From Planctomycetota bacterium (GTDB lineage Bacteria > Planctomycetota > SZUA-567 > H5-PLA8), in the NCBI GenBank assembly GCA_038227875.1, contig JBBRPR010000007.1, forward strand, positions 32,001-96,000: 64,000 nt of DNA, in the 5' to 3' direction. Below the pieces are notes generated by a model. The model saw only the letters and a program-made list of their open reading frames with translations, ran no database searches and was not told where the DNA came from. The translations under genes were made by a program, and so were the position numbers. Below, piece after piece: positions 6,825-41,814 of the stretch. How positions within the stretch are numbered: the stretch's first letter is position 1; every line of letters begins with the position of its first letter.

Positions 6825-6840
6825 AGGCAGCGGCTCCACT

Positions 6841-6863
6841 TGTTGGACATCCAACATCCTACA
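6841..6863. promoter_or_regulatory. Probable GntR/FadR operator overlapping the operon promoter
   Basis: Palindrome TGTTGGA-CA-TCCAACA (6841-6856) with ACATCC(A/T)ACA tandem repeats just upstream of the regulator; minus-strand TTGCTT-N17-TAGGAT. Confidence 0.55.
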
Positions 6864-7044
6864 TTGTAAATTTACCATAAGCAAGCAAATTCCCGATGGT
6901 TTTGATCGTCAGTTGAGACGAGTCGCTCAAGAACGGCACCGGTCCCAAACTATCAAACACTTGACTTTATAGTCACTTACATGTATTGTTTTTCGAATTC
7001 CGTCTGTCGAAATATTATCCCGTTCGCCTTCTAGGAGGTACGAA

Positions 7045-7563: not shown

Positions 7564-7603
7564 CGCGGATCAAAACTCAAACCGGGAACTCATAAAGGAG
7601 AAC

Positions 7604-7632
7604 GAAAGACGCGGCGGCTTGCCGCGTCTTTC
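7604..7632 (+). terminator. Stem-loop, possible intrinsic terminator
   Basis: 12-bp stem GAAAGACGCGGC / GCCGCGTCTTTC after the stop at 7563. Confidence 0.5.
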
Positions 7633-7643
7633 CATTTCAAACC

Positions 7644-8381
7644 ATGACGCTAACCGAAGAAACCGTCGACCTGCCCACCGCCACCGGACCGATGCGGACG
7701 TCGATTTTCCGACCTGTGGCGCCGGGAAAGTACCCTGGCCTGCTTTTCTTCTCTGAGATCTTCCAGATCACCGCGCCCATCCGGCGCATGGCCGCGATGC
7801 TCGCCGGCAACGGTTTCGTCGTCGCGGTTCCCGAGATTTTCCACGAGATGGAAACGCCCGGCGCGGTGCTGGGCTACGACACCGCCGGCGCCGACCGCGG
7901 CAACAAGGACAAGATTACCAAGACCATCGCATCGTATGACGACGATGCGCGTGCCGTGATCAAGCACCTGCAAACCGCTCCGTACTGTTCCGGCAAGATC
8001 GGAAGTTTCGGCGTCTGCATCGGCGGCCATCTCTCATTCCGCGCCTCGATGAACCCCGAGATCCTTGCCGGAGCGTGCTTTTACGCGACGGACATCCACA
8101 AGCGCAGCCTCGGCGCCGGAATGAACGACAATTCGCTCGACCGCATCCCCGAACTCAAATGCGAGATGCTGATGGTCTGGGGCCGCCAGGATCCGCACAT
8201 CCCCACCGAAGGCCGCGCCTTGATCTACCAGAAGATGACGGAAGCCAATGTCAGCTTTACCTGGCACGAATTCAACGCCGCTCACGCCTTCATGCGCGAC
8301 GAAGGCCCCCGCTACGACCCGGAAATCGAGCTGACCTGCTGGCACCTGTTGCTGTCGCTGTTCAAGCGCAAGTTGATTTGA
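7644..8381 (+). CDS. Dienelactone hydrolase family protein
   Basis: SEIFQ, GVCIGG nucleophile elbow, QDPHIP and HAFMRDEG motifs. Confidence 0.92.
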   Translation: MTLTEETVDLPTATGPMRTSIFRPVAPGKYPGLLFFSEIFQITAPIRRMAAMLAGNGFVVAVPEIFHEMETPGAVLGYDTAGADRGNKDKITKTIASYDDDARAVIKHLQTAPYCSGKIGSFGVCIGGHLSFRASMNPEILAGACFYATDIHKRSLGAGMNDNSLDRIPELKCEMLMVWGRQDPHIPTEGRALIYQKMTEANVSFTWHEFNAAHAFMRDEGPRYDPEIELTCWHLLLSLFKRKLI

Positions 8382-8397
8382 GTTTGGCCACGTTTTT

Positions 8398-8561
8398 TAA
8401 TCTCACGCAAAGCCGCAAAGACGCAAAGAACAGCAAAGAACGACGGGATTCGGGATTCGGGATTAGGGATTCTGGATTCCCCGTTGTCTTCGAATGCGAA
8501 TCCCGATTCCCGAATCCCGCGTCCCGCCGTTCGTAGTTCATTGCGGCTTTGCGTGAGATTA
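8398..8561. repeat. Nested inverted-repeat element with GGGATTC heptamer repeats
   Basis: Perfect 21-bp IR TAATCTCACGCAAAGCCGCAA (8398-8418 / 8541-8561) enclosing inverted (GGGATTC)n / (GAATCCC)n arms; lies between convergent genes. Confidence 0.8.
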
Positions 8562-8990
8562 GAACCCAAAGTTGCGCGAGCGTTCCTTCTTAATCTTGCT
8601 GTGCGCCTTTTTCTCGTCGATGCGACGTTGCACGCTGCCGCGCGAGGGTTTGCTTTTTTTGCGGATCTTCGGGTCGCGGTAGATGCTCATCACGAGCATC
8701 GAGAGGCGCTCCACGCACGCGCGGCGGTTGGCTTCCTGCGTGCGCGCGGTGTCGGACGCGATCAGCAAGTCGCCGTCGGCGGTGATCTTATTGGCCGCGG
8801 CGCGGCTGAGTCGCTGACGGGCGCCATCGCTCAGGCCGAGAATCTCCTCCGGCCGGATGCGCAACTCCGCCTTGGTGTTGACCTTGTTGACATTCTGGCC
8901 GCCGGGCCCGCCGGAGCGCGCGTAATGGTAGCGCAACGCGGTGCGGGCGAGCGTAATGCCGGGGGCCAGGGAGATCGTCGCGCTTTCCAT
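8559..8990 (-). CDS. arfB: Alternative ribosome rescue peptidyl-tRNA hydrolase ArfB
   Basis: RSGGPGGQNVNKVNTK (GGQ motif), RTQEANR and a basic C-terminal tail. Confidence 0.93.
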   Translation of the reverse strand: MESATISLAPGITLARTALRYHYARSGGPGGQNVNKVNTKAELRIRPEEILGLSDGARQRLSRAAANKITADGDLLIASDTARTQEANRRACVERLSMLVMSIYRDPKIRKKSKPSRGSVQRRIDEKKAHSKIKKERSRNFGF

Positions 8991-28217: not shown

Positions 28218-28501
28218 GGCTCGATGCCTCCGCTAGTTGCGAAATGCAGCGCAGTCGATGTGCCATTCCAACAATGCCGCAAGATCCTGCAACGAATTGT
28301 TTATTCGGCAGTTGCAAGATTATCTAAAATTCGGATCTGGGCCGATCTGAGAAACCATTCCGATTCATGCAAAACAATTTCAAATGCGAATTAATGCAGG
28401 TATGACCGCGCGAACACGCGAGACGCGACTTGATGAAAGACAGTCTGCTTGCATAATGTCGATTACGAAGATTACATTCCGACGTCAGCCCTGCAACATC
28501 C

Positions 28502-28541
28502 GCCATCTTAGCTCAGCGGTAGAGCAACGGTTTTGTAAACC
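28502..28541 (+). repeat. Left att site: 40-bp copy of the 5' half of tRNA-Thr(TGT)
   Basis: GCCATCTTAGCTCAGCGGTAGAGCAACGGTTTTGTAAACC is identical to 41500-41539. It continues ACCGTAGG and then diverges, with no T-arm or acceptor 3' strand. Confidence 0.95.
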
Positions 28542-28632
28542 ACCGTAGGCACTTTATGTATACTTTCAAAGTCTTACTTCATAGGTAAACGGCGTTCAAC
28601 GCTTTCAATAACTTTACTCCGACTTTCGCAAA

Positions 28633-28654
28633 ACCACCTCACAACCGCCTCACA
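28633..28654 (+). repeat. Putative integrase arm-type sites (left)
   Basis: ACCACCTCACA-ACCGCCTCACA, matching the tandem ACCGCCTCACA copies at 41432 and 41444. Confidence 0.7.
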
Positions 28655-28765
28655 CGATTACCTACGGTTTTCGCAGCGGGAATACGTGCCCGGCGTCCGT
28701 GCTTCCAGGCGGCCGGTGCGCCTGTAGGACTTGCCGGGCGCGTCGGCTGTGATAAAACTCGAACC

Positions 28766-28990
28766 ATGAGCCAACAAGGGACACTTATCGAATTTCTGAG
28801 AGCACAAGGACTGAGCGAGTTGCACGCGAAGGTGATGAGGGTGCGGTTCTACGAATGGATGAGTAAAAGCGGGAGGATGCCAGATTCAGTCGGCAGCGCT
28901 CTGCGCGCGCATACATACGCCTTCAAGAATCTTGAGGGACCGTGGGCGGAGTACCAGGCCATGAGGGCAGCGCGCGGCCGCAAGCCATAG
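28766..28990 (+). CDS. Hypothetical protein (element)
   Basis: 74-aa ATG ORF convergent with the late genes. Confidence 0.5.
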   Translation: MSQQGTLIEFLRAQGLSELHAKVMRVRFYEWMSKSGRMPDSVGSALRAHTYAFKNLEGPWAEYQAMRAARGRKP

Positions 28991-29027
28991 TTTTACTGCG
29001 CCACTCCTCACCGCCCCTACTGCTGGT

Positions 29028-29606
29028 TCACGCCACCGCAAACGTACAGCCTGTCCCTGGCGTGTTATCCCAGTCCACGAGATGGTTGTCTACGCCGACG
29101 TTGGACGACGCTTGCGCCAACGCGATGTCATTGTCCATCTCGGCATATACGCTGAATGTCTGGCCTGCGCTGGCGACGACTTGGCCGGTGTCGTATAGAA
29201 CCGTCCCGGTCGCCGGCGTGATGGCACTGGCGAAAGCGGTGCCGCCTGTCACATGCGCGAAGTCGAGCGCAGGCGTGGGAGTCAGCCAGTAAAGAGAGTA
29301 GGCCGACGGCGTGCCGCCAAACGCGCTAGTGTTCACCTGAAACCATATCTCTTTGCCCACATCCCCGGAGCCGGCCGTGAAACTCCAGATGCTGCGGTCT
29401 AGCTTGATGGTCGCGCTGTTGTGCTCCCAGCCCATCTTCAACGGCGTGGTGTATGTGCCGTCAGATGCGAAGTTCCAGCCACCAGAATAGGTGTAGTTGC
29501 GAAGTACACCCTGAAAGCTCGTTGTGATTGGGACTGGAACAGGGGTGATCGGCGAGCGCGCATACGTTCGCGGTCCCCAAAATGCCATCGCGTAGCCGCC
29601 AGCCAT
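29028..29606 (-). CDS. Hypothetical beta-rich protein, possibly virion-associated
   Basis: 192 aa rich in T/G/S/aromatic residues; last gene of the packaging operon, coupled to the upstream gene by TGATG. Confidence 0.65.
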   Translation of the reverse strand: MAGGYAMAFWGPRTYARSPITPVPVPITTSFQGVLRNYTYSGGWNFASDGTYTTPLKMGWEHNSATIKLDRSIWSFTAGSGDVGKEIWFQVNTSAFGGTPSAYSLYWLTPTPALDFAHVTGGTAFASAITPATGTVLYDTGQVVASAGQTFSVYAEMDNDIALAQASSNVGVDNHLVDWDNTPGTGCTFAVA

Positions 29607-29800
29607 CAGTTTAGTTCCGCCCGTAGATTTATCGCGTCGATTCTCTCGTTAATGGTGTCGATATTCTTCTGCTCAAGTGGCGAGACTGGACGCCCTTCGT
29701 TTCGCGCAGCATCGCGCATGGCCGCAATACACATCTGCATGAGTCGCAGTGCTTGGGCACGAGGGAGATCTTCAGTCTTGAAAGTTTTCGGGCCAGCCAT
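29606..29800 (-). CDS. Hypothetical protein (element)
   Basis: 64-aa ORF in a tightly packed operon, GGAG upstream. Confidence 0.6.
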   Translation of the reverse strand: MAGPKTFKTEDLPRAQALRLMQMCIAAMRDAARNEGRPVSPLEQKNIDTINERIDAINLRAELN

Positions 29801-29802
29801 TT

Positions 29803-29952
29803 TTATTTACTCCATCGCCATCTGCGCGTTGCCGTCGTTCGACACTTCGGACAATCCGTCTTTTCAAGGTCGCGGCGGGCCTTCGCTGCGTCGCCAAATG
29901 TCGTGTGCTGCGCGGAATGTCCGCAACGGTGTTTAGCTACGATGCGTGCCAT
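29803..29952 (-). CDS. Small zinc-ribbon-like protein
   Basis: MARIVAKHRCGH...DCPKC; starts immediately after the TerL stop. Confidence 0.55.
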   Translation of the reverse strand: MARIVAKHRCGHSAQHTTFGDAAKARRDLEKTDCPKCRTTATRRWRWSK

Positions 29953-29953
29953 A

Positions 29954-31234
29954 TTAGTACCAGCTCCGTGCTGGCCGATCGGTGGGCACACTTACCCAGC
30001 CTTCCTTACGTGCGAATGCTGCCATCGAGAGCGCCGACACAAGATTGTCCGGCTCTCCGTGGTAGCGCCAGATTCCGCCCTTGTACTCACATTTGTAGTT
30101 CCGCATTTCTTCGAGCAGATTGGTCAAGCATTCCGGCACGCTGATTTCCTGCCGTTCGATGATCAGCGCCAGGGCTTCGACAATGGCGGTTTTATTCTGC
30201 CACACTTGATAGATAAGCCGGTGTTTCGGGCACGCTGCTTTGTAGAGCTTCAAATACTCGTCGCCCTTGCCCTTTGCCGGCGCGCCGCCGCCGGTCGCGT
30301 CGAGTACGACCAGCGCATCGCCCCATTGCCGCGCCAGCGTGCCTACGCGTTTAGCCTGTACCGCGTGCTCCATGCCGAGCGGAAATATCTCGGTGTACTC
30401 AATCACGCCGGTTTCGATGTTGAGCACGACCACGGCAGACGGGTCGCGCGTCTTGCCTATGTCACAGCCGATGACGAAACAACCGGGGCGGGCTTCCAGC
30501 GCCTCACCGCGGATAATCCGGTCGATCTGCGAGCCGGGGAAACAGGTATCGGGCGCGTCGCCTTTGAGCGTTCCCTCCCATTCGAGTTCAAATCTCCATT
30601 TTACGGTTTGAGATTTTGCGATCTCTAATTCCAGCTTGCCGCGCTCCGTCATGAACGCCGGGCCCATGCGCGAGGGGATGAGCCAGCTTTTGTAGCGCGG
30701 CGCGCCGAAGTCCACGGGGTTCGATTCCGTGCCGGGTTCCGCCTGCCCCGGCGCGAAGTAGCCTTTTGCGTACCATGAACCGGGGCGCATCTGGCCGAGC
30801 ATTAATATACGTCCCTGCGTCGCGCCGATGACGGGGCGGATCACGCTTTCATAGTCGTCTTGGGACACGTCTTGAATTTCGTCGATGATCACCAGATGAC
30901 AGCCCTTTGAGCGAATATTTTTAGCGCGTTCAAGTGAGCGGAATTCGGCTTTGGATCCATTTTTGAAGAATATGCGCGTGGGTCGCGTGAGCGTTTTTTC
31001 AACGTGCTGCTCGATGCCTTCAACCTTCCAGAATGCTTCAAGTATTTCTGTCTCTTGGCTGCTCGTCGGCGTGGCAATCAAAGTCTTACCCCCACGCCGG
31101 CGATGCAAGCTTTGAACAATGATTTCATCAGCGGCAACATAGCTCTTACCCAGCTTGCGCCCACCTGCGAGCAAACGGAATCGCGCCGGGCTGAAAATGA
31201 TTTCTTCCTGCCAATCGCTAAGACATAATTCCAC
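29954..31234 (-). CDS. Phage terminase large subunit (Terminase_6-like)
   Basis: LSDWQ Q-motif, Walker A GGRKLGKS, Walker B LVIIDE, RNase H-like GCDIGKTRDPSA, VLDATG and PDNLVSAL. Confidence 0.9.
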   Translation of the reverse strand: MELCLSDWQEEIIFSPARFRLLAGGRKLGKSYVAADEIIVQSLHRRRGGKTLIATPTSSQETEILEAFWKVEGIEQHVEKTLTRPTRIFFKNGSKAEFRSLERAKNIRSKGCHLVIIDEIQDVSQDDYESVIRPVIGATQGRILMLGQMRPGSWYAKGYFAPGQAEPGTESNPVDFGAPRYKSWLIPSRMGPAFMTERGKLELEIAKSQTVKWRFELEWEGTLKGDAPDTCFPGSQIDRIIRGEALEARPGCFVIGCDIGKTRDPSAVVVLNIETGVIEYTEIFPLGMEHAVQAKRVGTLARQWGDALVVLDATGGGAPAKGKGDEYLKLYKAACPKHRLIYQVWQNKTAIVEALALIIERQEISVPECLTNLLEEMRNYKCEYKGGIWRYHGEPDNLVSALSMAAFARKEGWVSVPTDRPARSWY

Positions 31235-31237
31235 ATG

Positions 31238-31561
31238 CTAGGTTCCAAGTAGTTGAGCCGTGCCCGGCCGCACAATTTTCAGTTCAGCAATGGCGGGCTT
31301 TTCGTCGACTACTTCCGGCGTGTCGGACTGCCCCAGCTCATTCTTCCCGAGCCATATCAACAGCGCCGGGTTGCCCTTTTTCGCTGACTCCCATTGCAGC
31401 TCGAGCAGCGCGATACGACGCAGCGCCCGAGCCTTCTTGACGATTTCAGGGAATCCCCGGCGGATTGTCGTCTCGTCAACGCCCAGCGCGTCGGCAATCA
31501 TCACGTTGGAAGCGCCGGCGGTTGCCATGCGTTCGACTTCGGCGGGGTCAAGGTTCTTCAT
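31238..31561 (-). CDS. Probable terminase small subunit (HTH)
   Basis: HTH SNVMIADALGVDETTIRR, then QWESAKKGNPALLIWLGKNELGQSD, typical of the gene that precedes TerL. Confidence 0.75.
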   Translation of the reverse strand: MKNLDPAEVERMATAGASNVMIADALGVDETTIRRGFPEIVKKARALRRIALLELQWESAKKGNPALLIWLGKNELGQSDTPEVVDEKPAIAELKIVRPGTAQLLGT

Positions 31562-31654
31562 GTTGCAGCGCTCCAGATTTGCGCCGCCCGCGCGCCGCCC
31601 TAAGATGACAGCGCGCAGACGGTTCGGACCCCGCACACATGCGGTGCCCTATCT

Positions 31655-31942
31655 TTAAGCCTTGCGAGGACCACAGAAGGCTTGCATCCGGGCATAGAGC
31701 GCCGCGTCGCTGGCGTTGATTGGAACGGCGGTCGGCACGTCCAGATTTTTGCCACCGGGCGCCGTCGGGGAGTCCATGCCGCTGGGTTCTGCCGATGGCG
31801 TGACGATCCTGCCGCCGCCGGGCGGGATCGGTGTCGGAGCGCTGCCTGCTGAAGACTTGCGAACTTCAGCGAACACTGCCGCCATCATTGCCGGAAAGGG
31901 TGCTGGCGGCTGCCGGGATGCTTCCGTTGCTGACTGGTACAT
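31655..31942 (-). CDS. Hypothetical Pro-rich protein
   Basis: Strong SD GGAGGAG before ATG 31942; overlaps the 3' end of the portal ORF. Confidence 0.6.
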   Translation of the reverse strand: MYQSATEASRQPPAPFPAMMAAVFAEVRKSSAGSAPTPIPPGGGRIVTPSAEPSGMDSPTAPGGKNLDVPTAVPINASDAALYARMQAFCGPRKA

Positions 31943-33389
31943 TTGGGACTCCTCCGTTTGTGGTTACCGTTGCCGTCGCGGTCAATTGCCGCTCAAGGGT
32001 CTTGCGTTCGGTCTCCGTCATGCGGGGTAGGTACGCATTGCAGAGTTTCCGAATTGCCGCCGTGCGCGCGATGGCGGGCACGGGCAGCGCCAGGAATTCG
32101 GCACACTCGCCCAGCGCCTGACCTACGTTTTCGCTGTCGGGATCGTTCAAGCCGCACAGACGCGGATCTAGCTGTTGCTCGCCACGGGCGGCCGCCAGCA
32201 TGTTGATAGCGCGTTCGATTCCATCGCTGGCGGGCATAGAGAACAGGCTTAACAGAATTTCTTTCGGTGCCTGATCGAGCGCCTTGGCTTTCGCCGACTG
32301 CACAGGATTTTGAATCAGCGAAGCGGAGTGCTGCGCGAGATTAGACACGATTTTGTCGAAATTTCCGCGGAGGTCATCGCATGCGACCTTCAGCGCCGTG
32401 AACAGGTCGCCGGATGGCGTTGCAAATTTAAAGTCTCCGCCAATTCCCGGTGTCAAAACGGAAAGCTCATTGAGCATCAGTTGAGCGATGTCGGTTTTTT
32501 CCGTTAGCAAAATCGGCAAGCCAAGCGCCGACGTTTCCAGCGTGAACGCGCGCGCCGATTCTAGATTGAACAATCCGCGAGCCGTGGGAAGTAATCGGTC
32601 GGCAAGGGAGAAGTTCGCGGTACACGCAACCACGGGGCACACGCCGAAAATATTGGGCTTCACGACCAGCGACGCGACGGCATCTTTGGGCCATTCAGCC
32701 GAAAGAAATACGCTCGTGGGCTGCGGCCGCATCGCGGTGTAAGAATAAATCGAATCGGCGCAATAGTACGTCCATGTGTGCCGCTCAAGGCAAAGAGCAG
32801 AAACCGGCGACGGGTACTCCAGGTCGATTGTGTGCGCGCGGATCCAGTCCAACCGCCCGTTGGTTTCCTGCCAGCGGTCCACGGTTTCGCCGGGGATGTT
32901 AACGAAATTTCCGTCGAGTCGCCCGCGTCCCTTTGCGGCTGCCAGGGTTTCGCCGGGGAAGCCGTCAAGGGCGGGCATTTCCACGAGCAGATAAGCGCGC
33001 CGGAATTTCAACAGGTCTAGAATAATATTCTGGATAACTACGGTGCAATCGTTGCCGCGTCCGTCGCAGTCAGTATTAAGCGCCGTCCAGAATGCTGCGC
33101 GGTCGTCGCTGGCGTCGCTCACATCGAAGCAAGGTTCATCGCCGACGATTTCCGCCGCGATTGCATCCAGCTGCGGTCCAAGATAATTGTTGTAGATCGT
33201 CGACAACAGCCGGGAGCGTTGATAACCGGCGTTACTGTCGGAACTGCGCGGCTTCAAGTACAGGTGCTTCCTCGCGTCCATGCGAGCGCCACCGGCATAA
33301 AAATCGCCAATCTCAGTCAATAGCGCGGGGTCATAATCGGGATGCGTCGGCATCAGCATTTTGACCGGAACGGCTTGCGGAAAGTTCAT
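31866..33389 (-). CDS. Phage portal protein (DUF4055-like)
   Basis: 507 aa. The N-terminus HPDYD...YAGG..M.....YL.P...S...Y...RL...IYNNY resembles DUF4055-type portals, as does SAKAKALD. Confidence 0.75.
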   Translation of the reverse strand: MNFPQAVPVKMLMPTHPDYDPALLTEIGDFYAGGARMDARKHLYLKPRSSDSNAGYQRSRLLSTIYNNYLGPQLDAIAAEIVGDEPCFDVSDASDDRAAFWTALNTDCDGRGNDCTVVIQNIILDLLKFRRAYLLVEMPALDGFPGETLAAAKGRGRLDGNFVNIPGETVDRWQETNGRLDWIRAHTIDLEYPSPVSALCLERHTWTYYCADSIYSYTAMRPQPTSVFLSAEWPKDAVASLVVKPNIFGVCPVVACTANFSLADRLLPTARGLFNLESARAFTLETSALGLPILLTEKTDIAQLMLNELSVLTPGIGGDFKFATPSGDLFTALKVACDDLRGNFDKIVSNLAQHSASLIQNPVQSAKAKALDQAPKEILLSLFSMPASDGIERAINMLAAARGEQQLDPRLCGLNDPDSENVGQALGECAEFLALPVPAIARTAAIRKLCNAYLPRMTETERKTLERQLTATATVTTNGGVPNVPVSNGSIPAAASTLSGNDGGSVR

Positions 33390-33925
33390 TGTGCGACAGC
33401 CTCAACGGGTTCGGCCTGCGGTTCCAGAATGTCTTTGAAGTCGGCGAAGATGTCGGTGGCCACGGTCATGATTTCGCCTGCGGACTGCGTTTCCATGAGC
33501 CGCGAGCCGGTCATGACGATGGTATTCAAGCGCAGTTCGGGACCAGCCTGCAGCGCGTTAAGTTCAGCGGTCGCATCCACGATTTTAAGCTGCATCTCTT
33601 TTCGCATCCCCTCGAGCCTGCCGCCGATGGTCTTGGACGCGGTGTTGAGACGCGCGGCCAGTTTGTTTCGGAATTCAATAGCGGCAGCGGTGACCAGTGT
33701 CCGGACGTGTGGCAGCGTGGCGTCAATTTCTGCGAGCCGCTGACGGTCCGCGTCTGACTTTTTATCGCGCTTCGGCGGATCGTCGCCGGCCATGAGCGCC
33801 ACCGCGCGTTCCTTGGCTGCGGCATCGTCGCGCAGCACCAGGTCTGTGCGCAGCGTTTCGGCTTCCGCCTCCATCATGCGGAGTCGATTGCATTTCACCG
33901 TGAGTTCGTCGAATAGTTCACGCAT
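33386..33925 (-). CDS. Hypothetical coiled-coil protein
   Basis: 179 aa, helical; ATGA overlap with the portal gene. Confidence 0.65.
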   Translation of the reverse strand: MRELFDELTVKCNRLRMMEAEAETLRTDLVLRDDAAAKERAVALMAGDDPPKRDKKSDADRQRLAEIDATLPHVRTLVTAAAIEFRNKLAARLNTASKTIGGRLEGMRKEMQLKIVDATAELNALQAGPELRLNTIVMTGSRLMETQSAGEIMTVATDIFADFKDILEPQAEPVEAVAQ

Positions 33926-34391
33926 TCTTGAAAGCCTCCGCGACGGCTTTGTCGAGTTCCTGCATCAGCTTGGCATGGTTCGCGGTCGTCGCGACGGCCC
34001 GCGCTGCCAAGCAATCGTCGGCGTCCTGCTTCCGGCATACGGCTTCTTCCGCAATCGTGGCGATGCGCCAGCGTCCGTCCACGGCTGCCTCCACGTGGGT
34101 GAGATTGCCCGGCGTCGCATATGCGCGATCGGTGTCCGGGTGACCCACGGTGCCGCCGGGGATGCGCGGCCAGACGTGGTGCCGCGGCTTAGTGCGGAAA
34201 ATGAGGCAGAATTCCAGCGGGTCGCGTTTGCCTGCCGCGACGTTGCGGTCGAAAATCGTGCGGACGATTCCGAAGAGAACTTTGTTGTATGCGGGCAGAC
34301 TTTGCGGCGTGAGCACGTTGCCGGCCGCGTCGCGCATGTTTTCGATGCCTGGCTTGAATGGATCGAAAATCAAATATCCTTGTGCGGGCAT
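33918..34391 (-). CDS. Hypothetical protein (element)
   Basis: ATG 34391 after GGAGG; overlaps the next gene. Confidence 0.65.
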   Translation of the reverse strand: MPAQGYLIFDPFKPGIENMRDAAGNVLTPQSLPAYNKVLFGIVRTIFDRNVAAGKRDPLEFCLIFRTKPRHHVWPRIPGGTVGHPDTDRAYATPGNLTHVEAAVDGRWRIATIAEEAVCRKQDADDCLAARAVATTANHAKLMQELDKAVAEAFKNA

Positions 34392-34392
34392 T

Positions 34393-34575
34393 CTACTTTC
34401 CTCCAGTGGGGTTAGGCAGCGCGTTCGCGCCCAGGTACTCGTCAAACGGAATCAAAACTGCAACAGGGCGTCCGTTTTTGAGAATTATGATTTTGCCACC
34501 GTTTTCACAATGCTGAACGTGTGAGCAAAGTCTTCGTCGTGCTTCGCGTAAACTGTCTTCTCTCAAAAGCGCCAT
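34393..34575 (-). CDS. Phd/YefM-type antitoxin-like DNA-binding protein
   Basis: SLREARRRLCSHVQHCENGGKIIILKNGRPVAVLIPFDEY; SD GGGAGG. Confidence 0.75.
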   Translation of the reverse strand: MALLREDSLREARRRLCSHVQHCENGGKIIILKNGRPVAVLIPFDEYLGANALPNPTGGK

Positions 34576-34873
34576 CGTCTATCCCTCCCTAAATAATGCG
34601 TGTACACACTTCGCTTTCTCAACTCTTTTTTAGGAAATTCGGCGTTTATTTCTGAAATGACTGAAATATCGCTACAAACGGACGCCATTGAGTTCGAATC
34701 GCTGAATGGCACTAATTCACGTTTCGGGCTTTTGAACGCTGCCACGTGCGACGGGTGAAGGCTTTTGGGTCCTAAAACGTAGCCGGTGCGCAATTGCGGG
34801 ACATTCGGACCCTCTTTTGTTTAAGGGGGCACGCACGATGCGCCCTCGCCGGCCGGGGCTGGAAAAGGGCTTA

Positions 34874-35173
34874 TCACTCCGCGACACCAGCCAGGTCCCG
34901 TAGCTGCGGTTCGTTCGCCGTCGTCCTCACTGCCTTGCGCGGCGTCACGATCACCAGCTTCGTCAAGTCCACGCTCAGCGGTGCCGTGCCGACGCGGACC
35001 AGTTGCATCCAGCCAGCGCAGCGTTCAGCCTCACGTGTCGCCTCCGCCTGCGTTGCGTAGGACTGCGATAGCACCTCGATTGAATCGTCTTGCTTGAGTA
35101 TCATCACCGCCCAGCGGATAGCCTCGCCGATGCGTGGTGTGGCGGTGTTGTCTTCCAGTGTCTTCGTGAGCAT
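34874..35173 (-). CDS. Hypothetical protein (element)
   Basis: 99 aa, strong SD AGGAGGAAGG. Confidence 0.65.
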   Translation of the reverse strand: MLTKTLEDNTATPRIGEAIRWAVMILKQDDSIEVLSQSYATQAEATREAERCAGWMQLVRVGTAPLSVDLTKLVIVTPRKAVRTTANEPQLRDLAGVAE

Positions 35174-35205
35174 TGCGCCTTCCTCCTTGACCCTCGACAG
35201 ACACC

Positions 35206-35385
35206 GTCACGGCTTGCCTTATAAGCCGTGTGTGTGTCTAGTCTCCGAGCCCGTGACAGTCTCCCGTGACAGTCATCACGGTCTCAACTAACTGCTTTCC
35301 AGTAGCGGATTAACGGATTTGTGCCCTTCCGTGACAGTGTCTCGCTTTTGATGTCCGGCCGTGACAGTGTCGCCATCACGGTCTC
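35206..35385. repeat. Iteron-like repeat cluster, putative element replication origin
   Basis: CCGTGACAGT at 35251, 35264, 35329 and 35359; CATCACGGTCTC at 35274 and 35374; inverted GTCACGG at 35206. Confidence 0.7.
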
Positions 35386-36774
35386 TCGGACGGCGTTTTC
35401 GCCTCGTTTTGTGACTGCCCTAACCTTCGCTACAATCTCGTTGCGCGTCATGGGATGCGTCATTACGGCGCGAACGTCGTCCTCTGAAATTGGTAGCTTT
35501 GCGTTCGGATTGTTCGGCTTTTTCAGCGCTTCCGGATTAAGCGAGCTATCAATATCGAACACCGGATAGTTCCAGCGTAGGACCGTCGGCGGGATCGGCG
35601 GGAAGTCGCGGACAATGCATTCCAGCGCAACACAGTCTTCTTCCTCGTGCTCGGTCAACGTGATGATGCAATCGCCGTCACGCCCGATAACGCCGGACCC
35701 TGACGAGCGGTCTAGAGCCTTTTTCCCGGCTGCATTGCCCTTGGCAAAATGATGCGCGACGAGATATGCAGCGCCGGCCGATTCCGCGATGGATTCCAGG
35801 CGGTTGAGTAGGTCACCCATTTCGGACGCGTCGTTTTCACTGCGGCCATTGGTCAATTTATAGAGCGGATCGAAAATCAGTAACGCGTAGTCGCCGGATT
35901 TGAGCCGCTGATACAACTCCCGCTCTAGCTGCTCAATCGTAATTTTCTTACCACGCAGGTGCCAGACTGTAAACATGCCCGGGGCGAGCGTGATTCCGCG
36001 GTGATGGCAAATGTCCTGCAGTCGTTTTTGGAACGAATACCGACTGAGTTCAAGATTGATATAGAGCACTTTCCCGCGCGCTGTTTTCCTGTCCATCCAC
36101 GGCGCGCCGTCGCAAATACTCACGCCCACGTCCATCTGAAAGAAAGTCTTCTTGCCCTTCGAATCAGCCGACATTGTTACCTTTGAGCCTTTAAAACACA
36201 TACCTTCGATCAGTTCATCCGGACGCACGGCGACGGCTGTCTGCAGGTCCGCGCCGTCCTCGAAGTCTGGAAGTGGACCAATTGGTCCACTTTCTCCCAT
36301 ATCGTCGACTTCAACCTCGCCGGGATTGTCAGGTGTACGGTCCCGTACACCTGCCGATTCCTTCGGCCCTCGATACTTCACGCCCGAACCTAGTTGAATC
36401 GTCGCGCCGGCGGCCTTCGCGCGCTTAACCAGGGTGCCGATGCCCAGCTCGCCATTCTGCTTGAACGACTTCCACTTCGCCGCGCATTCACCTTCCTTGT
36501 ATTTCGAACTGGAACTGCTCCAAGATTCCCAAAGCGACAATCCGTCGGCGCCGGGCATCTTCGTCTTAATTATCATCCCGGTTTCGTACCAAGTTTCGTA
36601 ACTATCAGCGTGGGTGCGCAGCGCGTTCAAGCATTGCTCGATAACACGCGTGTCGTCCGAGGCATTTACACAACGTTGTGTAACCTTCGGCGCCGGCTGT
36701 TCAACTGTTGCGCGCGCAACAGTTGATTCATCCACCAGCGGTGGGATGCCGTTCATAATCTCTAATTCGTCCAT
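35284..36774 (-). CDS. PriCT-2 domain + AAA_25 (RepA-like) helicase
   Basis: SYETWYETGM..WESWSSSSSKY..ECAAKWKSF (PriCT-2); P-loop variant ADSKGKKT, VLYINLE, LLIFDPLY, ENDASEM, VAHHFAKG and SGSG; SD AGGAG before ATG 36774. Confidence 0.85.
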   Translation of the reverse strand: MDELEIMNGIPPLVDESTVARATVEQPAPKVTQRCVNASDDTRVIEQCLNALRTHADSYETWYETGMIIKTKMPGADGLSLWESWSSSSSKYKEGECAAKWKSFKQNGELGIGTLVKRAKAAGATIQLGSGVKYRGPKESAGVRDRTPDNPGEVEVDDMGESGPIGPLPDFEDGADLQTAVAVRPDELIEGMCFKGSKVTMSADSKGKKTFFQMDVGVSICDGAPWMDRKTARGKVLYINLELSRYSFQKRLQDICHHRGITLAPGMFTVWHLRGKKITIEQLERELYQRLKSGDYALLIFDPLYKLTNGRSENDASEMGDLLNRLESIAESAGAAYLVAHHFAKGNAAGKKALDRSSGSGVIGRDGDCIITLTEHEEEDCVALECIVRDFPPIPPTVLRWNYPVFDIDSSLNPEALKKPNNPNAKLPISEDDVRAVMTHPMTRNEIVAKVRAVTKRGENAVRETVMATLSRPDIKSETLSRKGTNPLIRYWKAVS

Positions 36775-37313
36775 TCTGTGCGCTCCTGAATATGGCAATA
36801 AACTTCCTGCGGGTCGGATTTGCGATGAATGAAGCCGGGTATGCGCATCACGCGGGGTAAGTCTTTGATTGCGACGTCGGTGCCGTAGAACCGAGCAAGG
36901 CGCTCTTGGCATTCGGTGAACTTGGCGAGCGGACATTGCGTCAACCAATACGCATGCCAGCGCGGAAGTTCTCCCGGTGCTGTATCGCGCCACGTGACGA
37001 CGTTCGGGCATTTGTGCCAAGTCTTCGGCCATTCAACGCCATCGGCATCTACGAATAGCGCGCGCACGCCGGTGATGTTCTCTCGCTTCCTGCCGCGTCC
37101 GTCGGTCTGATTGACGGTGAAGAATATCCCCGCGCCCGCGTTATTCAGCCGGGTGAGTTCGCCGGCCACGTTGCGGAATTTGCCATTGAGCACGCGCACT
37201 AACTCGCGCCGCCCTTTGCCTGCGTCGTCGAAAGTCTGGAATGTGTGATCGGTGCCGAAACAGTCGAGGAAGGTTTCAGCCACGTGCAGGTCAATCGTGG
37301 GGGCGAGAATCAT
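36762..37313 (-). CDS. RepB-like archaeo-eukaryotic primase domain protein
   Basis: FQTFDD, GAGIFFTVN, RALFVDADG, WHAYW and KDLPRVMRIPGFIHRK motifs. Confidence 0.85.
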   Translation of the reverse strand: MILAPTIDLHVAETFLDCFGTDHTFQTFDDAGKGRRELVRVLNGKFRNVAGELTRLNNAGAGIFFTVNQTDGRGRKRENITGVRALFVDADGVEWPKTWHKCPNVVTWRDTAPGELPRWHAYWLTQCPLAKFTECQERLARFYGTDVAIKDLPRVMRIPGFIHRKSDPQEVYCHIQERTEWTN

Positions 37314-37627
37314 GCCGCACCCCGATTCTGAAGCAGAGCGGCCACAGCCTGCCTGTATTGCGATTCCGGCACACCCAGCGCGCGCGCCAGACTATTCAGC
37401 GTCTCCGGCTTCGGTCGCTTGAGCTTCCCGCCCTCCAGCCGCCCGATAGTCACGTGGCTGATGCCGGAACGCGCGGCCAGGGCGGCGACGTCGATACCCT
37501 TCGCGACACGCAGCGCGCGCGGGTCGGGTTGCGTCGTGAGCGCTCCGAGCTGGCGTAGCTTAGCTTCGATGCGCAGGTCGATTAGGCGTTCTAGATTGCC
37601 GAGTACGTCGGGAAGGTCGGCGCTCAT
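37310..37627 (-). CDS. XRE-family HTH regulator
   Basis: LRVAKGIDVAALAARSGISHVTIGRLEGGKLKRPKPETLNSLARALGV. Confidence 0.88.
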   Translation of the reverse strand: MSADLPDVLGNLERLIDLRIEAKLRQLGALTTQPDPRALRVAKGIDVAALAARSGISHVTIGRLEGGKLKRPKPETLNSLARALGVPESQYRQAVAALLQNRGAA

Positions 37628-37806
37628 TTCTGCACCGCCTTACCCAACCGCACGCAAAGATCAGCGACAGCAGCGGCATCCCAAAGGAATGCCGCGCCGC
37701 ATTTGGTGTAGGGTGTTTTCGAGGCTTTTAGGATGACACAGGTTTGATATAGCGGCAGCTCTAAAACCTTTGCCGCTTCTCTTGTGGTTAATCGTATCGT
37801 TCCCAT
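37624..37806 (-). CDS. Small HTH protein, excisionase-like
   Basis: LTTREAAKVLELP..KTPYTKCGAAFLW (HTH_17/Xis-like); ATGA-coupled to the XRE gene. Confidence 0.6.
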   Translation of the reverse strand: MGTIRLTTREAAKVLELPLYQTCVILKASKTPYTKCGAAFLWDAAAVADLCVRLGKAVQK

Positions 37807-37851
37807 TTCAAATGCCCTCAAAAGTCTGAGAGCATTGTTTAATCGCCGTTT

Positions 37852-38223
37852 TTATTTACACAGTGGGCGCTTTAGTTTCCGAGACGGTTTCCGTTTAGTT
37901 TCCACGTGTCGCCGCCGCCGATTTAGCTTAATGCCAAGCGTGGATTCGACTTCTGCAATAGCCCTTGAAATGGTTTTTCGCGCCATGCCTAATTCTTTTT
38001 CAATGATGTCATATTTTGGTACCTCGTCCTTTGGTTTCAAACACAAATACTCATGCATCTTTTTCGCGGCTGGCGAGAGCTTTGAAATATTGCCGCGCAG
38101 TTGATGAAATTCAATTGCTAGTTCCTCGCACATATCCGCAAGGCCGACTACCCCTTTTCGAAGATCGTCGCTTCGTAAAATTGCGTCTCGGTAGGCACGA
38201 ATGCTTTCTACAAATTTATACAT
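37852..38223 (-). CDS. HTH-containing hypothetical protein
   Basis: PKYDIIEKELGMARKTISRAIAEVE and a basic C-terminus. Confidence 0.65.
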   Translation of the reverse strand: MYKFVESIRAYRDAILRSDDLRKGVVGLADMCEELAIEFHQLRGNISKLSPAAKKMHEYLCLKPKDEVPKYDIIEKELGMARKTISRAIAEVESTLGIKLNRRRRHVETKRKPSRKLKRPLCK

Positions 38224-38253
38224 TGCGCTTGCTCCGCGCTGCTCGTGAATAAA

Positions 38254-38307
38254 GCCGGGGGCAGACTGGCGAGCATACCAGTCAGGGAGCTACCCTTTGC
38301 CCCCGGC
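38254..38307. ncRNA. Putative structured RNA (three-way junction)
   Basis: Outer stem GCCGGGGGCA/TGCCCCCGGC enclosing the hairpins GACTGG/CCAGTC and AGGG/CCCT; intergenic. Confidence 0.45.
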
Positions 38308-38317
38308 GTGCTGCATT

Positions 38318-38773
38318 CTACGCTGTCGCCTGCAGATACTCCAACGCGTCGTCCTCAAGGCAGCTTTCACCGTGCTGCCGGGCAAATTCAACTACGTCCG
38401 AAAACAATCGGTAGACCTCTGACAAATTCTTTCCGGGCGTGTTCTCTACTAAAAATTCCGCCAGTTCATGGCACGCGAAATCGTACTCGCTGTTTTTATT
38501 CAGCGGTCCGCCGCACTCACGATAGATTCGAATTGCTCGACGCATGGTATTAACAAAAGACTTTCGCCGGCCGCCTTTGTTACCGTAAACGGCGTGATGA
38601 AACGTCGCACATGCGTATTGCCAGCTTGCCCGGCCGTAGAGCTGCTCAGCGACCACGAGCGCGACTTCAACCGCGGATTGTCCACCGTCCATCGGTGAGC
38701 CGATTGGAATTCCCCATAGCATATCGAGCAGGTCTTCGCCGACGTCGTGGAGTGTTGCCTGTGCGCGTTTCAT
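38318..38773 (-). CDS. Hypothetical helical protein (element cargo)
   Basis: 151 aa, ATGA-coupled to the upstream ORF. Confidence 0.6.
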   Translation of the reverse strand: MKRAQATLHDVGEDLLDMLWGIPIGSPMDGGQSAVEVALVVAEQLYGRASWQYACATFHHAVYGNKGGRRKSFVNTMRRAIRIYRECGGPLNKNSEYDFACHELAEFLVENTPGKNLSEVYRLFSDVVEFARQHGESCLEDDALEYLQATA

Positions 38774-39276
38774 AGTTCCACCGCCTTCCGGCCGGCGAGC
38801 ATTTCCGCCAACTCCTCCGTGGGACTGCCTTCCGATTCGTGCTTATTCTTGTCGCGGGCGTGATACTTCACGGCTTCGCTGAAATGTCTTGCGGTCAGGG
38901 CGTACAGATGATTGTCGCGGAGTCGGCGCGCCAGCCAGAAATTGAAATGCCACAGATTCCGAATCTTGCCCGGGTATCGGTGTGCGTATTCGATGGCGAC
39001 TTCGTAAAATTCAATTCCGCTGCCATAGCCCCGCGCCATTAAACTGTGACCGAGATCCGTGAGCACCACACACTGCCTTTCGTCGTCGGCATTTCTCAGC
39101 TGAAGGTATGAGAAAACCTTCAGACTGTATTCATGGATCGGCGCGAAGCTTGTGCTGCTGCCGCTTGAGCTGGCCCACACGGACCAGCCTACCATCGAGG
39201 CGAAGTGCCTGTCGTTCAAGAAATCGTCAACGGTGAGGTCTTCTACTTCGCGAAAGGTGAGTGGTATTTTCAACAT
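38770..39276 (-). CDS. Hypothetical helical protein (element cargo)
   Basis: Start MLKIPL overlaps the upstream stop. Confidence 0.6.
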   Translation of the reverse strand: MLKIPLTFREVEDLTVDDFLNDRHFASMVGWSVWASSSGSSTSFAPIHEYSLKVFSYLQLRNADDERQCVVLTDLGHSLMARGYGSGIEFYEVAIEYAHRYPGKIRNLWHFNFWLARRLRDNHLYALTARHFSEAVKYHARDKNKHESEGSPTEELAEMLAGRKAVEL

Positions 39277-39848
39277 TCCACCACCCCCTGCGCTGCAAGG
39301 CATTTTTCTCGAATGCAGCTCGTGCCAGTTTTGCAAACATGGTCATCGCCAAGATTGTATTTTTCCTGAAAAACTTCAATGCGCTTCAGCATCTCCAGCC
39401 CGAGTTCTGGGCGGCCCGTGTCCGCGTAAATTTCCGCCAATTCACAGCACGCCCACCCATACACAGTCTCGCGCGCGTATGATCCAAAAAAAACATGCTT
39501 ATCGTAGATGGCGATGGCTGATAGGAGCATCTTTTCATCTTTGGATTCACCTACCGAACAGCAGTGATAAAGCGAATCTGCCGCCTGAAGACTCTCGGGA
39601 CCGAATACGTGGCGCGATAATGCCAATGTGAATGTGTCCACGGCGTGCACGACCGCGTCACTATAGCCGCGGCCGTGAAATACCTCGCGCAGTCCGTGGG
39701 CGAACGTGTCATAGCCCAGTAGTGAGCCCATATTGAACAGGGCTTTCAGGATTTCGTCTTCCGAGGAGGAGCAGACGAGCGCTTCGTTGACGGGCCGGCG
39801 TTTGGCGGGATTGTGTTTTTTTAACAATAGACCACTTGAAGATTTCAT
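39270..39848 (-). CDS. Hypothetical TPR-like protein (element cargo)
   Basis: RHVFGPESLQAADSLY and ELAEIYADTGRPELGLEML resemble TPR helices; start uncertain (39848 or 39896). Confidence 0.6.
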   Translation of the reverse strand: MKSSSGLLLKKHNPAKRRPVNEALVCSSSEDEILKALFNMGSLLGYDTFAHGLREVFHGRGYSDAVVHAVDTFTLALSRHVFGPESLQAADSLYHCCSVGESKDEKMLLSAIAIYDKHVFFGSYARETVYGWACCELAEIYADTGRPELGLEMLKRIEVFQEKYNLGDDHVCKTGTSCIREKCLAAQGVVEC

Positions 39849-39930
39849 CGTGGAAATCCTTTCCGAGACCGTTACCCTTGCCGATACAGATAGCAAGGAT
39901 TTGGCCTACTCACTTTAGGTTGGGTCCCCA

Positions 39931-39972
39931 GCGAGGCGTGAGAGTATCAGCTCTTGCGCCTCGCGCTTTTTT
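39931..39972 (+). terminator. Intrinsic terminator-like hairpin, antisense to the cargo operon
   Basis: 14-bp stem GCGAGGCGTGAGAG/CTCTTGCGCCTCGC (its G-U pairs form only on +) followed by GCTTTTTT. Confidence 0.55.
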
Positions 39973-40028
39973 AGGCGGGTTTAGTCCCGCTCACTTCCGC
40001 GACGCGCCTCCACGCGTCGAAAATCCAA

Positions 40029-40046
40029 TGTCCACAATTGTGGACA
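40029..40046. promoter_or_regulatory. Perfect 18-bp palindrome, putative operator
   Basis: TGTCCACAATTGTGGACA between the divergent integrase and cargo operon. Confidence 0.55.
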
Positions 40047-40294
40047 AATCAAAGCTTCGATTCCGCATCTTCCACACGCTTCCGAATTACCTCTGAACGC
40101 GTGAGATTCCACGCCTTGCCGATCCGGGCTAGAGACTTCACCGTCGCCTTCGGGCATCGGAAGATGATGTTTTGACTCGCGTCTATGGTTTTCGGCCTGC
40201 CCATTTTTGCCATGACTGAGAACCTTAACCGTTTTTTTCTTGCTGTCTACAATAATCGTATATACTGAAGTAGATTTATCGGAGATTCCTGCCC

Positions 40295-41477
40295 ATGGCT
40301 AAACGTGACCCCAATAAATTCGAAGTGAAGGGCAACCCGTCAATCTTCGTTACCATCGCGCGCCACTCCCGCGACGGCGACCACGCGAAGGATGCGTGCT
40401 GGCACTTCGTCTTCTGGCACGACGGTAAGCGCAAGCGGGGTTCCACGGGCAAGACCGAGCACGCCGACGCGGTTGAAGTCGCGCGCAAGGAAGCCGAAAA
40501 AGTGATGAATGCCGCCGTCAATCCTTCGGGCGGTCTCGATCTCGGCGCCACGGTGGCGCAGTACCTTGAAGCGCGCTGGCCGAAAGACCGGAAGCCGGAC
40601 GTGCGGAAGGGCAATCGCAGCTACCAGGATGCCAAGAGCCGCTTGGAGCTATTCGTCGAGTACACCGGGAAGGATGCGCGCCTGTCTTCGCTGGACTTGG
40701 AAGGCGCAAAAGGACTGTTCCGAAAGTTCCTGAAGAAACGGAAGGCCGACGGCATGAGCGCCCGGACGGTGTTGAATGACAAGCTGATTCTCAGCCGGTT
40801 CTGCTCCGAACTACTGGAAGCCGATCCCGCCGTGGTTTACTGGCCAGCGAACCCGCTGAGTTTCGTAAAGTCAGACAAGCCCGACGCGCCGGACGCCGTA
40901 CCCTTGACGGAAGAAGACGTGCAAGCGGTATTGAGCAAGGGAAAGACGTCCGCCGCGTGGCCCCTGATCGTGCTATGCTTGGGCATGGGCTTTGCGGCCG
41001 CGGGAAGCCACGCGTGTGCAGTGGAAGCACGTGAGCTTCAAGGACAATGCCGTTACCGTCTTCGGGAAGAAGCGCGGCCGGACGCCGCAAATGTCCACGT
41101 GGCTGGCCGCCCAGCTCCAAGCGATCAAAACCGCCTCACCGGACGCCTCACAGCCGGACTTCCTCTTCCCCCACAACAGCTTCACCGCCTTCGACTTCTT
41201 CGCAGAGGTACGAAAAGCCGCATTCGGCGACGATGGCGAGCATGTAACGCTGCAATCCCTTCGCCGGACGGCCTGCAGGAAGGCGGCGCCCACAATGACC
41301 GTGCACGCCTATGCCGCGTATTTCGGCCACGGGCTTGCAGTTGCCCAGAAGCACTATCTGGGGTATGGTCTCGACGGGTTGGGCGGGAAGGTTAACGTAA
41401 GTGCTTTGGACTATACCGCCGCGCCCAGCGCACCGCCTCACAAACCGCCTCACAGCGCGGAGGCGAAAAGCGCTTAA
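40295..41477 (+). pseudogene. Tyrosine integrase with a 1-nt frameshift at ~40991
   Basis: N-terminal arm-binding region (WHFVFWHDGKRKRGSTG). Removing one T from GGC-TTTG-CGG restores LGMG-LRPRE followed by FGKK, QSLRRT, FGH and KHY in ORF 40992..41477. Confidence 0.85.
41432..41454 (+). repeat. Putative integrase arm-type sites (right)
   Basis: ACCGCCTCACA-A-ACCGCCTCACA; a degenerate pair also at 41130-41152. Confidence 0.7.
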
Positions 41478-41499
41478 ACCTTATGCAGTAACAAGTTTA

Positions 41500-41571
41500 G
41501 CCATCTTAGCTCAGCGGTAGAGCAACGGTTTTGTAAACCGTAGGTCCTGGGTTCAATCCCCAGAGATGGCT
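41500..41571 (+). tRNA. tRNA-Thr (TGT)
   Basis: Acceptor GCCATCT/AGATGGC, D-arm GCTC/GAGC, anticodon stem ACGGT-TT-TGT-AA-ACCGT, T-arm CTGGG-TTCAATC-CCCAG; CCA not encoded. Confidence 0.97.
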
Positions 41572-41814
41572 TTTCAGAACGACCGACCTTCCTCTCCATC
41601 TTTTTGATTCAGGAGAATTCAGAACCGGGTTCGGCAACCGCACGTCGTTGTATTTAACGACATAAATGACAAATTAGCTTGGAAGGTCTTTCGAATTTAT
41701 ACCTATAAGATTATCCATATTATGATGTTATGAAAATTACTCGCGATCATTTAATTTAGACTTGTCACTTAAATTACATCTCTAACGGTGTTTATTATGA
41801 GCAGGAGATCCTTC

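Follow-up and report, generated by a model that had tools for sequence, protein, structure and literature searches.

A 13-kb satellite-like island in a planctomycete genome encodes its own portal, TerL and TerS-like protein and no recognisable capsid or tail

The 64,000-nucleotide stretch analysed here (hereafter, the window; G000:C7:32001-96000, from the 9.3-Mb binned genome G000 of a Planctomycetota bacterium, 88% complete with 4% contamination) contains an integrated island of 13.0 kb with genes for a portal, a TerL and a TerS-like protein. The island is bounded by exact direct repeats of 40 nt (28502-28541 and 41500-41539; 100% identical), which lie 12,998 bp apart from start to start, just as had been noted in an earlier reading of this DNA made without database searches (hereafter, the sequence-only reading). 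The right repeat, the attachment site attR, comprises bases 2-41 of a tRNA-Thr(UGU) gene (41499-41572, + strand; ARAGORN; Rfam tRNA 72.1 bits), i.e., its 5' half up to the anticodon loop, and the left repeat, attL, is a 40-bp copy of this 5' half within a sub-threshold tRNA match (28502-28594; 26.4 bits vs a gathering score of 29). Because the repeat is a tRNA 5' half, the island appears to have inserted in the 5' half of tRNA-Thr, bringing a replacement 5' half with it, and its arrival there by site-specific recombination is evident from the sequence itself. The GC content of the island (0.53-0.60) is slightly under that of the right flank (0.63) and near that of the left flank. Using Logan contigs from two sequencing runs of one study (with one depth figure per contig), we found that contigs of run X1, possibly the source sample, span the island and end at both att repeats. 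Neither an attL-attR junction nor a closed circle was present in the run contigs, which cannot reveal rare excised forms.

The late operon of the island (- strand) holds the packaging genes, and the portal and TerL calls are each backed by three independent lines of evidence. The 507-aa portal (31866-33389) matched phrog_145 (7.5e-18 over residues 16-405) and no Pfam family. It aligned with annotated phage portals (tblastn E 3e-23), including the portal beside TerL in MW202476.1, and its relatives number 629 representatives at E <= 1e-3; a profile built from 31 of these relatives matched three solved portal proteins (best 1.1e-8). The 426-aa TerL (29954-31234) matched Terminase_6N (30.3 bits), Terminase_6C (30.4 bits) and Terminase_3 (28.4 bits), all above the cut-off, as well as phrog_2 (2.6e-25) and solved TerL nuclease domains (8e-9). 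Its translation contains the motifs GRKLGKS and VIIDE, which we take to be the Walker A P-loop and the acidic Walker B motif of TerL. The portal and TerL calls of the sequence-only reading are therefore sound, and its TerS call is sustained by position, a helix-turn-helix (HTH) domain and conservation, although not by any TerS family match in Pfam or PHROGs. This TerS-like open reading frame (ORF) of 132 aa (31238-31636, - strand; likely start M26 at 31561) ends 3 nt before TerL and has weak N-terminal HTH matches. It is 68% identical over 72 aa to an ORF after the portal in another genome of the phylum (G237) and 44% identical to an ORF just upstream of TerL in a third (G401). Judged from their sequences, the portal, TerL and TerS-like protein are apparently intact and full length. 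A 291-aa ORF antisense to TerL (29753-30628, + strand), which has no family match, is probably a shadow ORF.

We scanned all 68 ORFs of at least 65 aa on both strands of 28401-41600 against PHROGs. No capsid family was matched by any of the 68 ORFs, the head and packaging matches being confined to TerL and the portal, and there was no Pfam capsid match. Tail and lysis families were also absent among these ORFs at E <= 0.01 in PHROGs, the sole tail row belonging to a 99-aa ORF (E = 0.023). Six-frame searches of the whole genome with two coat models (PF05065 and phrog_283) gave no signal inside the island, and no protease family was recognised among the island proteins. Head-tail adaptors and connectors found no match in Pfam, PHROGs or NCBIfam, such proteins being small and often unrecognisable by sequence; several island ORFs of 60-100 aa are unassigned. 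The absence of a recognisable capsid or tail, proposed before any search was made, thus holds with one weak tail row as its only blemish.

Portals and TerL proteins go with coats of the HK97 fold, which need about 250 aa or more. The largest unassigned ORFs on the main (minus) strand are 208, 192, 188, 179 and 175 aa long. This agrees with the earlier claim that no unassigned ORF exceeds about 210 aa, if the 291-aa antisense ORF is set aside. The size argument against a full HK97 coat gene stands insofar as the 250-aa rule applies, and a very divergent coat may still be encoded. One alternative is built on just such a coat: the island would be a complete minimal virus, a tiny tail-less or short-tailed temperate phage whose shell is formed by one or more unrecognised ORFs and which needs no helper for its head. 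Between six and eight ORFs of the late operon lack an assignable function, and the best candidate among them is the 192-aa ORF (29028-29606, - strand), the last gene of the operon, for which an all-beta structure is predicted; it has a conserved counterpart in a relative, and its nearest Atlas lead (0.86) is a phage-rich hypothetical cluster. Its AlphaFold model consists of strands only and is too poor to read (predicted local distance difference test score [pLDDT] 40.9), and it has no match in Pfam, PHROG, NCBIfam, PADLOC or PDB. Since its one full-length homologue (188 aa, 60% identical) is collinear, this ORF is not a gene fragment. We consider the minimal virus improbable, because no candidate reaches the HK97 minimum, lysis and tail matches are lacking, and the ORF next to the portal is purely helical.

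That ORF encodes an elongated 179-aa protein (33386-33925, - strand), and its stop shares 4 nt with the portal start. Its AlphaFold model (pLDDT 86) comprises helices at residues 2-45, 55-145 and 149-167 in a long helical hairpin, and this predicted fold argues that it is not a coat protein. It is 25% identical (E 1e-12) to a 167-aa ORF that occupies this position in G237. Neither BFVD nor PDB yielded a fold match at E <= 0.001, and alignment (hhalign) with the scaffold-position proteins of G401 and a further genome, G404, gave probabilities of 4% or less. Its position suggests that it may be portal-associated, or a scaffold-like or size factor. The remaining small ORFs of the operon are less informative. 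A proline-rich 95-aa ORF (31655-31942, - strand) overlaps the portal 3' end, has no family match, is not conserved in G237 and shows a flat GC content by codon position (0.64/0.64/0.67), so that it is doubtful whether it is a gene. ORFs of 64 aa (29606-29800) and 62 aa (29803-29991), both on the - strand, have no significant family matches, and the same is true of two ORFs farther upstream on this strand (76 aa, 34563-34793; 99 aa, 34874-35173).

The replication genes precede the late operon. A 183-aa primase with a RepB_primase-type N-terminal domain (36762-37313, - strand; PF16793 26.2 bits, above the cut-off; phrog_10514 5.9e-15) is followed by a replicative helicase with PriCT_2 and AAA_25 domains (35284-37032, - strand; likely start M87 at 36774; AAA_25 1.8e-28, PriCT_2 1e-18, phrog_2597 8.6e-67). 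At the 3' end of the helicase gene lies a cluster of iterons (CCGTGACAGT; 35199-35371) with four direct copies and further inverted copies, a probable replication origin judging by the repeats. A 105-aa XRE-family regulator (37310-37627, - strand; HTH_31 3.4e-12, HTH_3 1.1e-10) adjoins the primase. Primase, helicase, iterons and XRE regulator were all named in the sequence-only reading, and each is recognisable in the searches. Relatives of the primase occur in two further genomes (G408 and G406) on small integrase-primase islands without head genes, which suggests a replication backbone common to islands with varied cargo. The island in G408 (C182:4257-13578) measures 9.3 kb, lies between 45-bp tRNA-Arg(CCU) repeats and contains an integrase and no head genes; its primase and helicase are fused, and the primase part is 52% identical to that of the studied island. 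In an empty-site comparison, the orthologue of the right-flank gene of our island was found next to this G408 island, and the left flank was not syntenic.

At the other end, a tyrosine integrase gene (40295-41477, + strand; phrog_1, PF00589) reads toward the tRNA, and nearly all other genes lie on the opposite strand. An integrase had been listed in the sequence-only reading, but its gene is split by a single frameshift near 40985-40995. The N-terminal part runs in frame 0 up to about 40990 (phrog_1 5.3e-11), and the catalytic C-terminal part is read in the next frame, starting at about 40992 (phrog_1 3e-5; PF00589 22 bits, below the cut-off). Because a run X1 contig from a second assembly, possibly of the same sample, has no indel difference at this site, the frameshift is probably real. 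The present copy of the island is thus probably immobile and locked in place, and the loss is probably recent, because all other genes look intact. Divergent from the integrase is a 54-aa ribbon-helix-helix (RHH)/CopG-like repressor (40049-40213, - strand; phrog_876 transcriptional repressor, 2.7e-7). The excisionase (Xis) listed in the sequence-only reading could not be verified.

A broken integrase raises the possibility that the island is a remnant undergoing decay, derived from a small prophage or capsid-forming island that lost its coat, protease, connector and tail genes by internal deletion before the integrase was lost, leaving an immobile locus with portal and terminase genes as relics. 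We regard this as rather unlikely, although it is the leading alternative. The att repeats are perfect, the integrase is the one gene visibly broken, and the other ORFs are full length and tightly coupled, all of which argue against prolonged decay; the intact 192-aa terminal ORF with its collinear homologue points in the same direction.

Comparisons of the portal module bear on the same question from both sides. Only two portal relatives are more than 50% identical (62-63%; P0002 and P0003), both of them full length and from two other metagenomes, again contrary to decay, and a further one (P0153) is 43% identical to the island portal. The contigs that carry the portal relatives P0002, P0003, P0004/P0153, P0005 and P0008 are 10-42 kb long. 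Among 401 genomes sampled from the phylum, we found one other clear portal relative, in G237 (same family; 39% identical). Its 4950-bp contig contains, in order, the 167-aa helical protein, the portal, two unrelated ORFs and TerS, and no ORF large enough for a coat occurs either in the 1.6 kb upstream or in the interval separating portal and TerS. Because the coat-less, portal-first order is common to both genomes at 39% identity, it would be old rather than a product of recent deletion, which speaks against a remnant. Just upstream of the helical protein-portal pair, this contig also encodes a 225-aa protein (G237:C226:3349-4026) that has repeated beta motifs and an N terminus resembling a signal peptide; it is unlike any ORF of the studied island.

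More distant portal relatives (25-34% identical), from G404 and G401, belong to ordinary head modules with the order TerS-TerL-portal-scaffold-coat, the coat being phrog_283, and one of these modules (G404:C47) also has tail-fibre genes. The head modules of the same bacterial order (G404:C47, G404:C30, G401:C589 and C717) resemble the island in their portal (phrog_145), TerL (phrog_2) and related TerS-like protein (44% in G401), whereas they differ in gene order, in the presence of scaffold and coat genes and in having protein identities of only 25-34%. Since these distant relatives reside in coat-bearing modules, the island packaging genes appear to descend from ordinary phages of the host group, and the G404 and G401 modules are, on sequence grounds, likely their evolutionary source. 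This ancestry is also what a remnant would display, as is the absence of the island from viral contig collections. The sequence-only reading had proposed to abandon the satellite interpretation if homologous modules occurred only in full-length prophages; the distant ones do lie with coat genes, but the G237 block is coat-less.

The same genome contains a sibling island (G000:C35:1 to about 10,055) with a primase 77-78% identical and a helicase 30% identical to those of the studied island. It also shares a copy of a 74-aa terminal ORF and a non-coding box. The 74-aa ORF lies just inside attL (28766-28990, + strand, opposite to the main operon), has no family match and shows 55% amino-acid identity to the ORF in the same position of the C35 island and 41% to one on contig C93. 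The box (28681-28733), which includes a short internal hairpin, is 92% identical over 53 nt to C35:9800-9852; an att arm site or a packaging site would be guesses at its role. The late genes of the sibling encode a Holliday-junction resolvase (3343-3927), a TerS (phrog_83, 5592-5954), an S49 prohead protease (6735-7706) and an HK97 coat (7719-8831), and neither a portal nor TerL was recognised in it. The contig start truncates the C35 island, which ends in a tRNA-Gln 3' fragment. A matching tRNA-Gln(CUG) lies on contig C58 (5285-5355, - strand); the region downstream of it encodes an intact integrase of 455 aa, along with a toxin-like ORF and an HTH ORF. C58:1-5284 and C35 may be a single island of about 15 kb that was split by the assembler. 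The C58 contig ends in repeats at both ends, which are also present on C104, C116, C126 and C135.

Retention of protease and coat without portal or TerL in C35 would fit two different deletions from a fuller ancestor, in line with decay. Because the sibling has another partial head set, it can equally be argued that incomplete head modules are habitual among islands of this family. The complementary gene sets also raise the possibility that the two islands work as a pair, which jointly supplies a full head and packaging set, by mutual help or by joint mobilisation, and takes only tails from a phage. Both islands occur in one assembled genome, their recognised head genes are complementary, and they share a 78% identical primase, the 55% identical terminal ORF and the 92% identical 53-nt box near the att-distal end. 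Several observations nevertheless make such a pair decidedly improbable. The phrog_145 portals occur with phrog_283 or phrog_247 coats in all four modules read (G404:C47, G404:C30, G000:C58 and G401:C589) and never with the phrog_10 coat type of C35; the two TerS proteins are not similar at E <= 1e-3; a contig end truncates the C35 island; and, with an estimated contamination of 4% in a binned genome, co-residence in one cell is uncertain. The broader proposal that the lineage holds modular islands splitting the head toolkit, with the channel in the studied island and the shell in C35, so that a two-part capsid-forming satellite would need only tails, is in our estimate very improbable.

To our knowledge, satellites show two patterns: they either borrow the whole head and motor or build a whole head. 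Borrowing is the pattern of phage-inducible chromosomal islands (PICIs), P4, PICI-like elements (PLEs), VEIMEs (integrative mobile elements encapsidated in virions) and PICMIs (minimalist chromosomal islands inducible by phages), and building that of capsid-forming PICIs (cf-PICIs) and Streptomyces satellites. The island resembles classical PICIs, including those of Staphylococcus aureus (SaPIs), in its size, its end integrase with divergent regulators, its TerS-like gene that could redirect packaging, its primase and helicase, and its iteron origin just past the helicase gene. Classical PICIs use the portal and TerL of the helper, whereas the island encodes its own, and the available part of the published PICI model (de Sousa et al. 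2023) lists a cf-PICI-type portal as a forbidden component, which the island has. No cpm-, ppi- or rpp-like genes were recognised in the island.

As far as the accessible text of the cf-PICI reports describes them (Alqurainy et al., 10.1101/2022.09.08.507074; de Sousa et al. 2023), cf-PICIs share with the island an integrase, a regulator, a primase-replicase and their own portal, TerS and TerL, and they likewise have no tail or holin genes and need a helper for the rest. The cf-PICI model includes capsid, head-tail adaptor and connector genes and at least 9 of 11 core components, according to the portion available (de Sousa et al. 2023). In contrast, capsid, adaptor and connector were not detected in the island, its portal precedes TerS and TerL, and its host comes from another phylum, one that is poorly sampled. 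The island therefore fits neither the classical PICI, since it has a portal, nor the cf-PICI, since no capsid, adaptor or connector was found.

P4 likewise integrates at a tRNA; this satellite of 11-13 kb has no coat gene and uses the coat of its helper, as described in the available part of the source (PMC7762592). Unlike the island, P4 has no portal or terminase and uses helper packaging together with the external scaffold Sid; no homologues of Sid, Psu or Delta and no alpha-type primase were found in PHROG scans of all island ORFs. VEIMEs and PICMIs, which are minimalist marine satellites, in the accessible descriptions resemble the island in having no major capsid gene, a tyrosine integrase, a primase-helicase and sometimes TerS. 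They differ in their reliance on the TerL of the helper and in being packaged as concatemers, and in the available main text of the VEIME paper a portal is never mentioned. A satellite with portal, TerS and TerL and no capsid was not found described in the literature, although the supplementary lists of incomplete cf-PICIs in de Sousa et al. (2023) may hold such cases.

Based on these comparisons, we tentatively favour, with somewhat less than even confidence, the interpretation that the island is a PICI-like integrative phage satellite with its own portal-terminase channel, which obtains coat, tail and lysis functions from a helper. Its architecture is of the PICI type, with tRNA att sites, an integrase at one end, regulators, primase-helicase and iterons, and a late packaging operon in 13.0 kb, a length inside the range of 8-18 kb given for satellites in the part of the VEIME paper available. 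Under this interpretation, growth of a helper phage would lead to derepression and excision of the island and to its replication from the iterons. The island portal, perhaps with the 179-aa protein as a scaffold or size determinant, would then seed procapsids made of helper coat protein. The TerS-like protein would select island DNA and TerL would dock on the island's own portal, so that shells seeded on this portal would be filled only with the 13-kb island. Finally, helper tails and lysis proteins would complete the particles. The sequence-only reading had described a PICI-like satellite that borrows a shell and tail: size, layout, att sites, motor genes, the G237 gene order and the sibling agree with this description, but no evidence of mobilisation or of the use of a helper capsid was found.

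Several observations weigh against the helper-coat satellite. According to the accessible part of a recent study (10.1101/2025.02.15.638363), the portal nucleates the shell, and portal and coat therefore usually co-evolve. It follows that a portal working with a foreign coat needs special pleading. In all three distant modules that could be read (G404:C47, G404:C30 and G401:C589), the portal is followed by a scaffold and a phrog_283 coat. The integrase is frameshifted, and the second-assembly contig carries the same frameshift. Six small ORFs (192, 157, 99, 95, 64 and 62 aa) have no confidently modelled fold. The family is also rare, with no relatives found in scans of IMG/VR, metagenome or GTDB contigs, and recurrence as an independent unit of 12-15 kb is consequently hypothetical. 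The genome does contain prophage-like regions that have complete head modules, at least two in number. One (C58:11551-17939) has a TerL of phrog_2, a portal of phrog_145 and a coat of phrog_247, and the other (C92:1-17000) has a TerL of phrog_38, a portal of phrog_12, a 602-aa coat, an adaptor, a tape measure and fibres. These prophages are candidate helpers; however, their portal and TerL proteins are not significantly similar to those of the island, and no helper was found.

If the satellite interpretation is correct, an island with only a portal and terminase would represent a third satellite strategy, in which door and motor are its own and the walls are stolen. Such an arrangement would offer the satellite an easy means of keeping shells for its own DNA, and it would also test how strict the match between portal and coat has to be. 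Should the island prove to be a remnant, it would record the decay of such elements and warn against inferring life style from gene content alone. In either case, a sibling island with complementary genes makes the question testable within one genome.

The accessory genes bear on a last alternative, in which the locus is a defence island: the portal and terminase would be decoys that poison phage head assembly or packaging, a Phd module and the cargo genes would mediate abortive infection, and spread would be secondary. A Phd/YefM-family antitoxin of 60 aa (34393-34575, - strand; PF02604 1.8e-9 and TIGR01552 6.9e-6, both above the cut-off), a gene already recognised as Phd-like from the sequence, stands beside a coupled orphan ORF. 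The latter is 175 aa long (33918-34445, - strand), or more likely 157 aa from M19 (34391), a start one base after the Phd stop. It has no homologue beyond itself and no family, PDB or usable Atlas match, and could possibly be the toxin that pairs with the Phd-like antitoxin. Three accessory cargo ORFs (38318-39896, - strand) of 208, 188 and 151 aa, in order from the integrase side, lie beside the integrase end and have no match in Pfam, PHROGs, NCBIfam or PADLOC. Known satellites do interfere with the assembly of their helpers, as far as the accessible literature describes. Nevertheless, no PADLOC family names a defence system: scans of the island ORFs with NCBIfam and PADLOC returned nothing beyond Phd and two weak CasR rows on a 123-aa winged-HTH ORF. 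Moreover, an intact TerL and a replication origin exceed what decoys would need, and we therefore judge a defence island to be very unlikely.

This 123-aa protein (37852-38223, - strand) has a weak winged-HTH match (HTH_1 1.9e-4, below the cut-off). Just upstream of its gene, an 87-nt box (38223-38309) is 80% identical, in a 94-column alignment, to C58:489-580, within the C58:1-5355 segment that contains the tRNA-Gln gene. A 65-aa ORF upstream of the primase module (37624-37821, - strand) is 44% identical over 57 aa to an ORF in the same position of the G406 island. Between the cargo genes and the repressor-integrase end lies a GC-rich hairpin of 15 bp followed by a T-run (39931-39964), which falls within a sub-threshold SymR-like Rfam match (39897-39967; 32.7 bits vs a gathering score of 61). 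Apart from this match and the tRNA, the Rfam scan of the island returned nothing.

Elsewhere in the genome, the segment G000:C30:15550-24250 contains an integrase 36% identical to that of C58 and a TerS 36% identical to that of C35, which lie about 7 kb apart, and may represent one more island of this kind. Isolated 5'-half fragments of tRNA-Thr, 91-98% identical to the att core, were found at five positions (G407:C9:2044-2083, G404:C38:11535-11572, G404:C106:41570-41612, G408:C234:3768-3804 and G000:C68:6569-6607). No homologues of island proteins were present in the stretches fetched beside these five fragments. Their sequence suggests that other elements use the same att site, and in G404:C106 the full tRNA lies 21.3 kb downstream of the half-tRNA-Thr fragment.

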